This document shows, one piece after another, positions 578-19,640 of a DNA stretch of 64,000 nucleotides. A model generated the notes under the pieces. The model had not been told where the DNA came from. It ran no database searches and saw only the letters and a list, made by a program, of their open reading frames with translations. The stretch comes from Escherichia phage fEgEco12. Where the stretch lies: sequence record PP777464.1. One strand, 5' to 3'. Within the stretch, counting starts at the first letter, position 1, and each line of letters starts with the position of its first letter. Made by a program: the position numbers and the translations under genes.

Positions 578-597
578 CCACCAGCTTGTGCTGGTGG
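578..597. other. Perfect hairpin carrying Chi octamer on both strands
   Basis: CCACCAGC-ttgt-GCTGGTGG, 8-bp stem, 4-nt loop. Confidence 0.7.
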
Positions 598-780
598 ATT
601 CCCTCTAACAGTATTCAGTACTACATGATGGTCTTCATCCTCCTAGGGTAACATAGTGAGGGCTATGATGGCAGTACTGAATACTCCCTTTCAAAAGATA
701 GATCTATGGTATAGTACTGACGGATTTTGGGTGTAGTTACCCTGGATGGATTTTGGGCGTAGATATGTCTAGCCCTCCAG

Positions 781-920
781 AAGTCTGGAAGTAAAGATGG
801 CTATCCATCTAGACGGCTAAACGGCTAGATTTCTGGATGGCTGGATGGCTGGATGGCTAGACGTTTGGACGGCTAAACGGCTAGATGGTTACACGTCTGG
901 AAGTATAGACGGCTAAATCA
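781..920. repeat. Iteron-like array
   Basis: CTGGATGG x3 in tandem (833-856); ACGGCTAAACGGCTAGAT x2; flanking AGTCTGGAAGTA copies; dyad AGATGG..CCATCT. Confidence 0.6.
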
Positions 921-1544
921 AAATTTTATTTTGTTTTTTCCAATAGTTCCCCTACCGCGTGGGGATAGTTTCCCCGCAGTATCTGGTGTTAGATTTTTCT
1001 GAATCTGGAATCATTATCTTATAAACTGGGGGCAATGTCAACGGCCTGGACGGATATTTTTAAAAATTTTTTCAGTACTGAATTTTGGGCGTAACTATGC
1101 ACCCGGTGGGCTTGAGTCTTTCTCGACTTGATGGAACTATTATACAGTACTGAAAAAATAAAGCAATACCCTGGAAGCAAAAAAGTTTTAATTAATTTGC
1201 TTGCTATCCTGGGCCGGACTATGGTACTATATTTCAGTACTGAGAAAGTGCGTTTACCTGCTAGGGTGCGGGAGTGTATCCTTTTTTTATATCTTGAATT
1301 TTGGACGGATCTTCCCACCCCCTGGGGTATCCGCTTTCTCGCGTCTATGTAGTAATTATACGCTTTTTCAGGATCAAGTCAATACCTAAAAACAAAATAA
1401 TTGAAAATAATTTAACGCGTTTAAACGGCCTGTAAAGCCCTGGAATGATTGGAATGGTGCAAATGTATAGCTTATGTGTATTAATGCGTTAGAATGCGTC
1501 TGAGGACGTTTTACGGGGTATAGGGATGATTTAGTGGATTGATT

Positions 1545-1631
1545 CAGTACTGAATAATAGTACTCCTATATAGAAAGATAGTTCCCCTGGATGATTGCAG
1601 TACTGAATAATAGTACTCCTATATAGAAAGA
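1545..1631 (+). repeat. Direct repeat, 2 x 34 bp
   Basis: CAGTACTGAATAATAGTACTCCTATATAGAAAGA at about 1545 and 1598. Confidence 0.7.
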
Positions 1632-1662
1632 AAACTATTTTAAAAGTATTTGTAGAAAGTAC

Positions 1663-1690
1663 TTGCACCGTACTGATAAAAGCGTATAAT
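1663..1690 (+). promoter_or_regulatory. sigma70-like early promoter
   Basis: -35 TTGCAC, 16-nt spacer, -10 TATAAT; consensus AAAGTACTTGCAA..GCGTATAATGTTTTACATC recurs. Confidence 0.6.
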
Positions 1691-1703
1691 GTTTTACATC
1701 GAG

Positions 1704-1722
1704 AGCGGGAACACTTCCCGCT
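1704..1722 (+). promoter_or_regulatory. 5-prime UTR stem-loop
   Basis: AGCGGGA-acact-TCCCGCT between -10 box and RBS. Confidence 0.5.
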
Positions 1723-1745
1723 ACACATTAAGAGAGATTAAAACG

Positions 1746-2108
1746 ATGGCGACTCAAATCAATAAAATCATGCTTAACCTGGTAAACTTCCGCGATGAGA
1801 TGAAAGGTCTTCCGGCTGAAACTGTAAAAATTCACATTGCAGCTTATCGGGAACTTATTGCAATGTTGCCGCTTAAGCGTGAACAATACGCCGCTACTTT
1901 GATGCTGGATTCAATGATCCATATAATGATCTCAAATGATTTGACGATGGTTTATCAGTATATGGGCGAAAATTTCGCGGTGTGTAGTAAGCCAGTACCA
2001 GGGATGGCAACAACTGAGGAATTGCACGGCTTAAACTTAAAACAAGATGCATGGGATAATATGCCTCGTTTCCTGGTATGGGCTGACAGTGGCAAAATTT
2101 ACAAATAA
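1746..2108 (+). CDS. hypothetical early protein (120 aa)
   Basis: Promoter, UTR hairpin; track ORF 1689 begins inside the -10 box, first ATG after hairpin used. Confidence 0.65.
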   Translation: MATQINKIMLNLVNFRDEMKGLPAETVKIHIAAYRELIAMLPLKREQYAATLMLDSMIHIMISNDLTMVYQYMGENFAVCSKPVPGMATTEELHGLNLKQDAWDNMPRFLVWADSGKIYK

Positions 2109-2122
2109 GTTTAATAAAGTAC

Positions 2123-2150
2123 TTGCAAACTATGTTTAATGGCGTATAAT
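2123..2150 (+). promoter_or_regulatory. sigma70-like early promoter
   Basis: -35 TTGCAA, 16-nt spacer, -10 TATAAT, then GGGGAA-tag-TTCCCC hairpin. Confidence 0.6.
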
Positions 2151-2201
2151 GTTTTACATCAGGTGGGGAATAGTTCCCCCCTATATAAGAGGATTAAAAA
2201 A

Positions 2202-17271: not shown

Positions 17272-17676
17272 ATGACTACTACTAATCAAGCTCGGTCCAT
17301 CGCCAACGATAAAAATCATGCTGCAATGGTCGCTGGTTACATTGAAGCTATGCAATTCAGTACTGTACACAATGAGAACGGCGATTACCTGGAAGATTAT
17401 GAGTTATCTGATGAAGCACGTCAAGCGGCGGTGATTGCATGTTCTCGCTTCATTGAGAAACACGGTAATGATCTGGAAGTAGTTCGCGGTATGTTTATTG
17501 ATTACGGTTATGAGCAAGCTGGTCATGATCTGTTCCTTACCCGCGAAGGTCACGGAACTGGTTTTTGGGATCGTGGTTTAGGTCACTATGGCGATGTATT
17601 CACGAAGTACTGCGAAGAAATCAACGTTTGCGATCCCTATGTAGGCGATGATAATCTAATCTATATGGGCGAATAA
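17272..17676 (+). CDS. hypothetical protein (134 aa)
   Basis: ORF track; promoter TTGACA..TATAAT, hairpin GGGGAGAATAGTTCTCCCC, RBS. Confidence 0.7.
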   Translation: MTTTNQARSIANDKNHAAMVAGYIEAMQFSTVHNENGDYLEDYELSDEARQAAVIACSRFIEKHGNDLEVVRGMFIDYGYEQAGHDLFLTREGHGTGFWDRGLGHYGDVFTKYCEEINVCDPYVGDDNLIYMGE

Positions 17677-17765
17677 AAGTATTTGACAAAGTATATCAGT
17701 ACTGTATAATAGTTTACATCAAGGGGAGAACTATTCTCCCCACACCAATAAAAGGAAACAAAATT

Positions 17766-18038
17766 ATGTCCAGCTACTCCGCTACTATGATCATTAAAGA
17801 TATGAACGGTAATCCTACTTCTGCTGGTGGATCATTTGGAAATATTAACTTAGATGGGCGGTTATCCATGCAATCAGCCATCGATACAGCGAAAGAAGTT
17901 TTTAAGAATGAATGTACTGTTAGTAAGCTGGATTATATGGGATTCGCTATCGAGAAAACTACTCGTTTTGTGAACTACAAAAATCCACTGATGATTGATA
18001 CTAACCTGAAAGCTAACGAAGTGGGGTACTTATTATGA
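17766..18038 (+). CDS. hypothetical protein (90 aa)
   Basis: ORF track; promoter, hairpin, RBS; internal Chi. Confidence 0.65.
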   Translation: MSSYSATMIIKDMNGNPTSAGGSFGNINLDGRLSMQSAIDTAKEVFKNECTVSKLDYMGFAIEKTTRFVNYKNPLMIDTNLKANEVGYLL

Positions 18039-18226
18039 CAGTAGAAGAAGTTAAAAAAGTACTGGCAGTACTACGATATCATAATCATTGCAAGGTGAAG
18101 AATGATCCTGATTATCTTGATTCATCCCTGGAGGAAGACACCTTGAACGCTATAAGCCATATGCAGACATTAGCAAAGCGTATGACTGAAAAGAACATGC
18201 CGGACTATATCGGAAATAAAATTTAA
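18035..18226 (+). CDS. hypothetical protein (63 aa)
   Basis: ORF track; ATGA overlap with upstream gene. Confidence 0.55.
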   Translation: MTVEEVKKVLAVLRYHNHCKVKNDPDYLDSSLEEDTLNAISHMQTLAKRMTEKNMPDYIGNKI

Positions 18227-18313
18227 AAAGTACTTGCATTGTAGTTAGATTAACGTATAATGTTTTATATCGAGAGGGGGAAATGGTTTCCCCTCAAGTC
18301 CAGGAGATACACC

Positions 18314-18577
18314 ATGAACACTATCGAAATCACTATCAATGCACACGTATACGACAACGTAGTACTGCAAACTACTATGACCGCCAATGATACCAGTACT
18401 TTGCGGAATACTGTTATTAGTGCCGTATGTGCCGCTATCGGTGATGTCGCCCTGGAAAATGCAAAACACGTAAACGATGGTTTCACTATGTGCAAACGTG
18501 ATAACGCAAAACATATCATCGTGGAAGGTTACGGCGGTGTAGAATTTAATGTTTATATGAAAAAAGTACTTGCATAA
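18314..18577 (+). CDS. hypothetical protein (87 aa)
   Basis: ATG after hairpin GGGGGAAATGGTTTCCCCTC and RBS CAGGAG. Confidence 0.65.
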   Translation: MNTIEITINAHVYDNVVLQTTMTANDTSTLRNTVISAVCAAIGDVALENAKHVNDGFTMCKRDNAKHIIVEGYGGVEFNVYMKKVLA

Positions 18578-18644
18578 TAACTAAAACAAAGTATAATGTT
18601 TTGCATAGGGGGAGATATCCTCCCCCACTAAAAGGAGTAATAAA

Positions 18645-18869
18645 ATGGCTAACTTTGATGAACTGATGCGGGAAGTAGCTAACCTGGCAGAAGAGAAGAA
18701 ATCATTCGATTCTATCTATAACACCGCTCACCGTGATTCAGTACTGGCATGTAACCAGGATCAAAAAGATGAACTAATCGCCACCTATCATGAAGCATGG
18801 AAGTACTACCGACAATGGGAGAAAGAAGAAAGTGAGTCTACCATTGACGGCCTCAATAATCTAATCTAA
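18645..18869 (+). CDS. hypothetical protein (74 aa)
   Basis: ORF track; promoter, hairpin, RBS AAGGAG. Confidence 0.65.
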   Translation: MANFDELMREVANLAEEKKSFDSIYNTAHRDSVLACNQDQKDELIATYHEAWKYYRQWEKEESESTIDGLNNLI

Positions 18870-18945
18870 AAGTTTTATTTCAGTACTATTGACATAGCTT
18901 GATAGTACTGATGTAATAACTTTACTAACTACAAGGGGAAACATA

Positions 18946-19203
18946 ATGGATCAGTTCACACAATATCGGGTAAATCCACAAGCTATGGCCTACGTAGAAG
19001 ACCATAAAACGTTACCAGTACTGCAACCAGTTAAAGGCCATATCTATCGTGCAATGTCGTGGTGTACGGCCCAGGATGGCTATAAAACCGTAGCCGTGGG
19101 TATGTATTGCGGTGATGGTGAATGGTTTGATCCAAATAATCCGGTAGCCATTGACAGTACTGAAAAAATGAAATGGGCCGACTACATCGAAGATATTTCA
19201 TAA
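18946..19203 (+). CDS. hypothetical protein (85 aa)
   Basis: ORF track; subtype-2 promoter; RBS GGGGAAA. Confidence 0.6.
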   Translation: MDQFTQYRVNPQAMAYVEDHKTLPVLQPVKGHIYRAMSWCTAQDGYKTVAVGMYCGDGEWFDPNNPVAIDSTEKMKWADYIEDIS

Positions 19204-19293
19204 AAACTATTTGACAGTACTAACCAATAATGTATAATGTTTTACATAGAGCGGGGGAATAGTTCTCCCGCCAATAGTTTGGAGTAAAACATT

Positions 19294-19494
19294 ATGTCTA
19301 TCGCTATCGCCCTGGTTGAAGTACTGAAAGAAGCTAAAGCCAACCAGATCGACGTAAAGATCCAGGAACTACAAAACGGCTTAATCGGCTGTACTTGTAC
19401 CGCTGGTGGAGCGGCAGACTATCGAGAACACGAATCACTCGAATCACTGGTTCGGTATCTTACCATGATCGTTGATGATTGGAGAATCATCTAA
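19294..19494 (+). CDS. hypothetical protein (66 aa)
   Basis: ORF track; promoter, hairpin, RBS GGAG; internal Chi. Confidence 0.65.
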   Translation: MSIAIALVEVLKEAKANQIDVKIQELQNGLIGCTCTAGGAADYREHESLESLVRYLTMIVDDWRII

Positions 19495-19506
19495 CAAAAA
19501 AGAATA

Positions 19507-19640
19507 AAAAAAGGGATTGACTCCGGTCAGTCCCTTTGCTATTATATACGCATAGACAAAAACTAGCCCACAGGGTGCATAGGTGTATCCAAAATATATA
19601 GTTAATAACGGTGAGTAACTATCTGCTGGTGGAACTAAAA
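19507..19640 (+). repeat. Conserved intergenic module, copy 4
   Basis: TTGACTCCGGTCAG promoter and TAGCCCACAGGGTGCATAGGTGTATC box; Chi at 19625. Confidence 0.6.

Follow-up and report, generated by a model that had tools for sequence, protein, structure and literature searches.

Why should one end of a jumbo coliphage genome be crowded with Chi, the octamer GCTGGTGG that enteric RecBCD enzymes recognise (PMC12315714)? This question is raised by a stretch of 64,000 nucleotides from Escherichia phage fEgEco12 (PP777464.1), which was analysed over its whole length and is called the window hereafter. An original prediction, made from the letters of this DNA, had listed 13 Chi sites and claimed that the octamer is strongly over-represented. 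Exact search of both strands reproduces every one of these 13 coordinates, ten on the plus and three on the minus strand, and the over-representation holds: 100 dinucleotide-preserving shuffles of the window contain 0.51 Chi on average (standard deviation 0.73, maximum 3), and none of the 100 reaches 13. Exact counting with a composition-matched null had been set beforehand as the test of this claim, and it places Chi far above background. Twelve of the 13 sites lie inside the long direct terminal repeat (DTR) with which the genome begins, and the remaining 43 kb of the window hold a single one. We consider it probable that selection has shaped the Chi octamers of the DTR, and that these octamers act on host RecBCD at the linear genome ends and lead to recombination via the repeats.

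The genome's physical left end coincides with the start of the window, whose first 60 nt equal those at position 1 of phage vB_Ec-M-J. fEgEco12 is an Asteriusvirus jumbo coliphage (fEgEco12/vB_Ec-M-J-like; 121Q/PBECO4 group, about 350-385 kb), and its first 20 kb match other phages of this genus with 89-98% identity, with the match starting at record position 1 in three records. In the record of vB_Ec-M-J (OQ718158.1) "Direct Terminal Repeats" are annotated at 1-21,525, both 21,525-bp copies are identical, and the end of this repeat aligns to window position 20,992 (20,992/3). For fEgEco12 itself a DTR of 20,993 bp was determined with PhageTerm and confirmed by restriction digests (PMC13070987). 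The G+C content steps at about the same position, from 0.38-0.39 inside to 0.30-0.35 beyond. From the homology to vB_Ec-M-J, the published length and this step we take window positions 1-20,993 (plus strand) to be the left DTR copy, which would recur at the right genome end outside the window. Determination of the physical ends had been called for in the original prediction, and the left end is now fixed via the termini of vB_Ec-M-J together with PhageTerm and restriction digests (PMC13070987). The virion DNA is about 375 kb long. The DTR carries about 55 small early-type genes on the plus strand, each with a sigma70-like promoter, and the DTR of vB_Ec-M-J is 65% coding and 35% non-coding. All close relatives of the window are Escherichia or Salmonella phages, which bears out the E. 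coli-like host that had been deduced from the octamer, and we infer an enteric host with a RecBCD that reads GCTGGTGG.

Within positions 1-21,500 there are ten Chi on the plus strand and two on the minus strand, where Markov models of order 0-4 expect 0.11-0.51 and 0.04-0.11, respectively. At orders 5 and 6 the plus-strand expectation climbs to 2.3 and 7.9, because Chi's own 6- and 7-mers occur almost only within Chi. The resulting density in the DTR is 0.57 per kb (12 in 20,993 bp, with 0.15-0.6 sites expected), 2.6 times that of E. coli with one Chi per 4.6 kb (0.217 per kb). All 24 one-mismatch variants summed occur in the DTR only four times on the plus and once on the minus strand, against ten and two for exact Chi, and by these counts it appears to be the exact octamer that selection acts on. 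Mimicry of host-like oligonucleotides was considered and rejected, as the DTR lacks other octamers that are abundant in E. coli, both CGCTGGCG, the commonest one there, and G+C-rich words like it. Chi is not the commonest octamer of the repeat either; CAGTACTG and octamers derived from promoters are more frequent. By over-representation, Chi takes about the 16th rank among DTR octamers, whereas in the unique DNA of vB_Ec-M-J it comes 329th.

Could the octamer be a by-product of composition or of early-gene codon usage? As GCT-GGT-GGN it encodes Ala-Gly-Gly and as CTG-GTG Leu-Val, and four window Chi of the DTR do lie in open reading frames (ORFs), three of them as Ala-Gly-Gly and one as Leu-Val. 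The Chi count in unique DNA is also largely explained by Markov composition of order 3-5. However, most DTR sites are intergenic: the sites at 578, 590, 6619, 6681, 10868, 13577, 19625 and probably 11378 are non-coding (7-8 of 12), as are seven of the 11 sites in vB_Ec-M-J. Models of order 0-4 expect 0.1-0.5 sites where ten are observed, the one-mismatch neighbours are nearly absent from the DTR, and adjacent arrays of early-type small genes outside the DTR have no Chi. The explanation by composition or coding is effectively refuted.

The whole vB_Ec-M-J genome was fetched and mapped for Chi, and it shows how strictly the octamer is confined. Each of the two identical 21.5-kb DTR copies carries nine Chi on the plus and two on the minus strand, where 0.12-0.38 and 0.04-0.09 are expected (order 0-4), an excess of 25- to 75-fold. 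The 335.5 kb of unique DNA carry 14 and nine, with 5.6-7.6 and 4.5-6.3 expected (order 3-5); one-mismatch neighbours average 5.4-5.6 each there, so that exact Chi is barely above background. Not a single Chi is found in the 38 kb after the left DTR or in the 18 kb before the right DTR of this genome. Since the small-gene arrays just outside the DTR lack Chi, the determinant is the repeat and not the presence of early genes. The window agrees with this picture, with no Chi between 19,632 and 60,313, as had been noted before for the AT-rich array. Its isolated unique-region site at 60313-60320 (minus strand) is in keeping with background frequency and probably does not belong to the DTR feature, because Chi in the unique region of vB_Ec-M-J is about as dense as Markov models of order 3-5 predict.

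This confinement also bears on the idea that Chi serves replication-fork repair as on the E. coli chromosome, where octamers co-oriented with replication and transcription would activate RecBCD at a collapsed rightward fork. The plus-strand Chi are co-oriented with all DTR genes, and in the unique region of vB_Ec-M-J Chi lies mostly on the local coding strand, with an about two-fold plus-strand excess. Fork repair predicts, however, a genome-wide spread and not a 7-fold higher density confined to the DTR, and it leaves the left-facing sites near the left end and the end-proximal palindrome described below unexplained. We therefore regard it as a very improbable origin of the DTR sites.

Conservation and recurrence are in line with selection on the repeat. 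vB_Ec-M-J and the Salmonella phage SD-15_S21 (Asteriusvirus) each retain 11 of the 12 window DTR sites, and EC22.5-2 / ECO103 4-12-1 retains every covered site except 11378. In 121Q, at about 88% identity, nine of 12 are retained, where neutral drift predicts about four (p = 0.007-0.03). The same pattern is found in two other genera of Rak2-like phages, whose DTRs have been determined or predicted. Klebsiella phage fENko-Kae01 has 12 plus-strand and two minus-strand Chi in a DTR of 19,736 bp and two in the next 30 kb (shuffles, 0.35 per 50 kb), and Pectobacterium phage CBB has seven and two in a DTR of 22,456 bp and three in the next 27.5 kb (shuffles, 0.53 per 50 kb). Both of these DTRs are largely non-homologous to that of the window; in fENko-Kae01 the similarity is limited to a few genes, with about 70% identity, and to cassettes of short intergenic sequence. 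G+C is higher inside than outside the DTR in vB_Ec-M-J (0.386 vs 0.354) and in fENko-Kae01 (0.373 vs 0.339). A DTR does not by itself attract Chi, since the 10.2-kb DTR of T5 holds only two (L021 8127 and 8689, both on the plus strand), with none elsewhere in the first 50 kb, the range examined. In the right DTR copy of T5 these two would lie 1.5-2.1 kb from the right genome end in active orientation, a faint version of the same geometry.

The surroundings of the octamer vary from site to site. No extended motif was found around the window Chi, merely a weak T...A flank, and the proposal that Chi is part of a larger repeat or of a promoter spacer in the window was rejected, as the flanks differ and none of the ten plus-strand sites lies in a spacer. 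In fENko-Kae01, sigma70-like promoters such as TTGACTataatctGCTGGTGGagTATTAT contain four of the Chi (L017 3711, 9192, 16840 and 18721) within their 17-nt spacer, and three of these four end exactly 2 nt before the -10 element. Such positions, the terminator-like hairpin around window site 10868 and the palindromic form of 578-597, which is common among protein-binding sites, are what one would cite for a regulatory or protein-binding element of the phage itself (a promoter spacer, a terminator stem or a DNA-binding site) whose match to host Chi is coincidental or additional. This reading is highly unlikely in our judgement. The contexts are heterogeneous, comprising ORFs, post-terminator DNA, DNA upstream of promoters and the terminal non-coding region, no consensus extends past the weak T...A flank, and the chance that the most enriched non-promoter octamer matches host Chi is about 1 in 65,000. 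In addition, the strong strand bias fits a reader that depends on orientation.

Which RecBCD molecules could use these sites depends on their strand. A plus-strand Chi acts on RecBCD that comes from the right and a minus-strand Chi on RecBCD from the left, a rule that had been applied correctly in the original prediction and that is the convention for lambda and LLS (Zheng et al. 2025, PMC12315714). Measured from the right terminus, assuming a right DTR copy as deduced by homology, the ten plus-strand sites lie at 1,361, 1,584, 3,163, 5,061, 7,409, 8,658, 9,608, 10,118, 14,305 and 20,396 bp; from the left terminus it is 577 and 6,618 bp to the two minus-strand sites. The strand ratios of 10:2 in the window, 12:2 in fENko-Kae01 and 7:2 in CBB pool to 29:6 (p = 1.2e-4). 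Across the three genera the mean relative DTR position is 0.62 for plus-strand sites and 0.26 for minus-strand sites (Mann-Whitney p = 0.004). Each class of Chi thus faces its nearer genome end, with plus-strand sites skewed to the right and minus-strand sites to the left, and in geometric terms the sites are oriented as RecBCD entering at either end would need them. The original prediction had proposed that sites near the left end blunt a RecBCD attack. Its core, outward-facing sites near an end, stands, but the sites are found at both ends and are confined to the DTR. Because of this confinement the reading shifts to recombination between the repeats, which is at least as likely as simple protection. 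If RecBCD is taken to recognise Chi in 20-40% of encounters, 0.6-11% of the enzymes entering from the right end would leave the DTR unconverted. In lambda the right end is injected first, and in T5 the left end enters first. The bias towards the right end in the phage studied here suggests that this end is more exposed, being either injected first or left free during packaging.

The most conspicuous arrangement is a double-Chi palindrome in non-coding DNA at 578-597 (both strands), which reads CCACCAGC-TTGT-GCTGGTGG. It had been described as a perfect hairpin formed by Chi in both orientations, and both the sequence and DNA folding agree: an 8-bp stem without mismatch closes a 4-nt loop, with -9.8 kcal/mol when folded as DNA (z = -3.0). 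Its minus-strand Chi (578-585) is located 577 bp from the left end and is the first that RecBCD entering there would meet, and its plus-strand Chi (590-597) is the innermost plus-strand site of the DTR. The stems are invariant in the window, vB_Ec-M-J, 121Q, SD-15_S21 and fENko-Kae01, and the loop is TTGT, ACAA or TTAA (copies compared with window 578-597: L002 588-607, L016 7393-7412 and L010 4531-4550). TTGT is present in the window and 121Q and its reverse complement ACAA in vB_Ec-M-J and SD-15_S21, with otherwise near-identical flanks. The flipped loop suggests that a hairpin or cruciform forms in vivo. In fENko-Kae01 the same double-Chi hairpin lies 484-503 bp from the left end. A search of IMG/VR for relatives, with the hairpin 20-mer and the DTR acetyltransferase as queries, returned only 121Q and two small metagenomic phage contigs, 3300018595_000012 (L011 2587-2606) and 3300019110_000006 (L012 245-264), which carry the identical 20-nt hairpin and are otherwise unrelated to the window. 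Both contigs resemble the uncultured Caudovirales clone 2F_1 (MF417929.1), and in both the hairpin is flanked by genes for virion morphogenesis and for the terminase ATPase. In its non-coding left end at 780-915, about 0.2 kb further in than the hairpin, the window has tandem short repeats (GGATGGCT four times, and AGACGGCTAAACGGCTAG-like units), which are candidates for terminase/packaging signals or replication iterons.

How could these sites work together? We infer the involvement of RecBCD from the identity of the octamer, its orientation and its geometry. RecBCD would load on a free duplex end and degrade the DNA while unwinding it, until RecC reads 5'-GCTGGTGG-3' on the 3'-ended strand. 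Enzymes entering from the right end would encounter ten correctly oriented Chi in the right DTR copy, the first 1.4 kb in and eight of them within about 10 kb, and those entering from the left end would encounter two, 0.58 and 6.6 kb in. On meeting Chi, the enzyme would nick the strand, its nuclease would be attenuated and it would load RecA onto the new 3' tail. Degradation would halt before single-copy genes are lost, and any lost DNA would persist in the other DTR copy. The RecA filament would match in sequence the other terminus of its own genome or of a sister genome, and strand invasion could yield a circle or a concatemer and could also prime recombination-dependent replication. Because every acting site is placed inside the DTR, losses would be limited to duplicated DNA and the RecA filament would find homology. 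Recombination, beyond mere survival of the DNA, would then be the pay-off. The authors of the fEgEco12 study independently propose DTR-mediated circularisation, without mention of Chi or RecBCD (PMC13070987).

A rival reading, close to that of the original prediction, is that Chi merely switches off the RecBCD nuclease so that the linear DNA survives, and that RecA loading is irrelevant since the phage uses its own UvsX/UvsY. Outward-facing Chi near both ends would suffice for this, and the phage family does have its own recombinase. A homologue of the T4 end protector gp2 was not detected by tblastn in the whole vB_Ec-M-J genome (best E = 9.5, with 5e-11 for a gp4 control), although remote homologues are possible, and Pfam holds no usable gp2 family. 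Likewise, no known RecBCD inhibitor was found in a PHROGs and Pfam scan that covered the ten largest DTR ORFs; its hits comprise families without an assigned function along with a GNAT acetyltransferase and a DksA/TraR zinc finger. The negative results for gp2 and for RecBCD inhibitors are weak evidence. An escape based on Chi would moreover avoid RecBCD inhibition, a known trigger of guard systems, among them retron Ec48, OLD and Gabija (PMC12904381); that a Chi-based strategy sidesteps the defences which sense such inhibition is speculation. Protection alone, however, leaves unexplained why Chi stops exactly at the DTR boundary, with no second line of defence further inwards, and why just two sites face the left end. 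Besides, the comparable arrangement in P1 is tied to circularisation that depends on RecA and RecBCD (bioRxiv 10.1101/2021.07.08.451572). We hence think it rather unlikely that protection is the whole function.

Several observations weigh against our preferred reading of oriented Chi sites that lead to recombination between the repeats. The left end has only two correctly oriented Chi and, at the recognition frequency assumed above, 36-64% of RecBCD entering there would run into unique DNA, so that protection is thin if the left end enters first. vB_Ec-M-J is annotated with a UvsX-like recombinase, UvsY, SbcCD-like gp46/47 and endonuclease VII, whereas among lambdoid phages a Rec module goes with the absence of Chi and Chi-rich phages lack such a module (PMC12315714). 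With these genes encoded, the phage family does not fit the lambdoid rule. Purines at +4 to +7 of the 3' flank make Chi most active (PMC5041463), and this favoured flank is not enriched (73 of 140, or 52%, against 54.5% in the background); the flank is a modifier of Chi activity and not a requirement. Some Chi are located in regulatory elements, namely a terminator-like hairpin in the window and promoter spacers in fENko-Kae01, where a second role is possible. Finally, the low Chi count of T5 indicates that the strategy is not general to phages with a DTR.

If repeat-confined Chi is read as we propose, a wider generalisation can be put forward, which we offer tentatively and hold to be possible, though not the likelier outcome. 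Rak2-like jumbo phages (Asteriusvirus, Mimasvirus and the fENko-Kae01 group) may share the Chi-studded DTR as a conserved "RecBCD-taming" module, with the palindromic double Chi, some 0.5 kb away from the left terminus, as one of its parts. A virulent phage with its own Rec functions would use a host cis signal instead of, or before, an inhibitor, and would thereby confine degradation to duplicated DNA, drive repeat-to-repeat recombination and avoid defences that guard RecBCD. If true, the reported rule that Chi-rich phages have no Rec module would be broken. Such a module suggests a stealth alternative to RecBCD inhibitors, which trip guard-type defences, and the host range of phage-therapy candidates of this genus may depend on the RecBCD/Chi specificity of the host. 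Repeat-confined, oriented Chi also offers a cheap and testable hypothesis for the early survival of giant phages with 20-kb DTRs and for the conversion of their linear DNA into a replicating form. No earlier report came up when the literature was searched for Chi in connection with Asteriusvirus, the DTR or jumbo phages, with most subscription journals outside the coverage. The principle itself is already known; the variant features here are the fixed long DTR, the strict confinement, the conserved double-Chi palindrome and the setting of a virulent phage with Rec functions.

The remaining sites of the DTR differ in context and history. The second and last left-facing Chi, at 6619-6626 (minus strand), is intergenic and directly follows a terminator-like hairpin; it is present in vB_Ec-M-J, EC22.5-2 and SD-15_S21 and reads CCGTCAGC in 121Q. 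The intergenic, right-facing Chi at 6681-6688 (plus strand) is retained by every relative examined. These two sites make up a second divergent minus/plus pair, an inverted repeat of 9 bp (gCCACCAGC...GCTGGTGGc) whose arms are 54 nt apart. All further sites are on the plus strand and face right. That at 10868-10875 is intergenic and belongs to the 3' arm of a hairpin that resembles a terminator (aGCCCACtggttaacGCTGGTGGGCttt), and it is conserved in 121Q, SD-15_S21 and EC22.5-2. This hairpin (10853-10880) has a counterpart at a different DTR position in fENko-Kae01 (L017 19339-19366) that keeps Chi in the 3' arm and shows a compensatory stem change, GCCCAC/GTGGGC against GGCCAC/GTGGCC. A hairpin shared at differing DTR positions suggests mobile intergenic cassettes. 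The Chi at 11378-11385, probably non-coding, is a gain specific to this phage; the homologous sequence in 121Q is GCTGGGGA, and vB_Ec-M-J and SD-15_S21 lack the site.

Four sites further to the right are conserved in all relatives examined. Those at 12328-12335, in a 62-aa ORF (12235-12423; GCT GGT GGa), and at 17823-17830, in a 90-aa ORF (17766-18038), encode Ala-Gly-Gly. The site at 15925-15932 is read in the frame xxG CTG GTG G (Leu-Val) of the ORF at 15830-16129, and the one at 13577-13584 is intergenic and precedes a promoter-like -35 element by about 30 nt. Ala-Gly-Gly is again encoded at 19402-19409, in a 66-aa ORF (19294-19494), at a site whose distance from the right genome end would be 1,584 bp in the right DTR copy; vB_Ec-M-J, SD-15_S21 and EC22.5-2 have this site and 121Q lacks it. 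The outermost right-facing Chi at 19625-19632 is intergenic and would be the first met from the right genome end, 1,361 bp away in the right DTR copy. It is kept in 121Q although the flanks are only 78% identical.

Other sequence elements stand out as well. The palindrome CAGTACTG is the most over-represented octamer both in the DTR and in the unique genome of vB_Ec-M-J (184 against 77 expected, Markov order 4). It occurs 63 times in the window, with 40 of these copies in the DTR, and is densest in 1-1700 (340, 380, 523, 549, 672, 1073, 1145, 1235, 1545 and 1598). About a quarter of its copies lie just upstream of a -10-like hexamer, and in at least two window promoters (around 365-400 and 19650-19690) it is placed between the -35-like and -10-like elements. 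It may serve as a packaging signal, as part of promoters or as a site for protein binding. The ScaI site AGTACT is found 256 times in the 64 kb, where a rough estimate from base composition gives about 20. The early-promoter consensus AAAAAGTACTTGCA-N16/17-TATAATGTTTTACATCAAG (for example at 6740-6790 and 13600-13660) explains most of the other top-ranked DTR octamers, and there are about 40 promoter-like matches on the plus strand of the 21-kb DTR. A repeated cassette lies upstream of two Chi (13496-13576 and 19517-19600) and consists of the promoter-like TTGACT-N17-TATTAT followed by atacgcataga..tagcccacagggtgcata; it may be a small transcribed element. TAGCCCAC occurs six times in the DTR, where 0.08 are expected. 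The motif CGTTAGAATGCG is present at 6700-6712 and 10925-10937, shortly downstream of the intergenic Chi at 6681 and 10868. In vB_Ec-M-J, fourteen tandem minus-strand paralogues annotated as "regulator of chromosome condensation" (RCC1-like) occupy 333-351 kb (L003 4633-22194), just upstream of the right DTR, and three coding-strand Chi lie within this paralogue array.

Among known systems, protein-based evasion deals with the same problem, linear ends that are exposed to RecBCD. T4 gp2 protects DNA ends, and lambda Gam, T7 gp5.9 and P22 Abc are further proteins by which phages evade RecBCD. Such proteins cap the ends or inhibit the enzyme, whereas the Chi sites of the window would be a cis-acting DNA signal that redirects it. 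T5 is similar in being a virulent coliphage of about 39% G+C with a long exact DTR (10.2 kb; the first-step-transfer DNA) that carries early host-takeover genes; it differs in having only two Chi in this DTR. The E. coli chromosome shares the identical octamer and a strand bias co-oriented with transcription and replication. There, however, Chi is evenly spread and 13 times commoner in ORFs, while the window DTR Chi are local and mostly intergenic in DNA of 39% G+C. Subramaniam & Smith attribute the Chi frequency of E. coli largely to codon usage (bioRxiv 10.1101/2021.07.08.451572).

Closer parallels are found in the lambdoid phage LLS and in P1. LLS has terminally clustered Chi, with 20 of 23 in active orientation, and was shown experimentally to grow better with RecBCD (PMC12315714). 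It resembles fEgEco12 in the clustering near a genome end, in a proportion of about 85% active for RecBCD from the right end (20/23 in LLS, 10/12 in the window DTR) and in a density of about one Chi per 1.8-1.9 kb. LLS differs as a cos phage of the 43-kb class that has no terminal repeats and neither recombination genes nor a RecBCD inhibitor; the family of fEgEco12 encodes UvsX/UvsY/gp46-47. P1 and its relatives P7, D6 and NGUA22 have Chi-dense terminal-repeat regions (Subramaniam & Smith, bioRxiv 10.1101/2021.07.08.451572). As in the window phage, Chi in P1 reaches 2-3 times the E. coli density, is concentrated at the terminal repeats with active sites facing both ends, and is as dense or denser in non-coding DNA, and its proposed purpose is RecBCD/RecA recombination between the terminal repeats of the injected linear DNA. 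P1 is, however, a temperate phage of about 95 kb that is packaged headful from pac, its repeats of 5-10 kb are permuted over several units, and its Chi is nearly randomly oriented (31/50 on the top strand) and the commonest octamer genome-wide. The window phage is virulent, about 375 kb long and equipped with a fixed 21-kb DTR and its own recombinase, and its Chi is confined to the DTR, lies to 83% on one strand and is not the commonest octamer. Two hallmarks of the P1 and LLS type, Chi as the commonest octamer and the absence of a Rec module, do not apply here, while density, end-clustering and orientation appear to match. Selection of Chi for the exploitation of RecBCD would thus extend from temperate P1 and the lambdoid phages to virulent jumbo phages with recombinases of their own.

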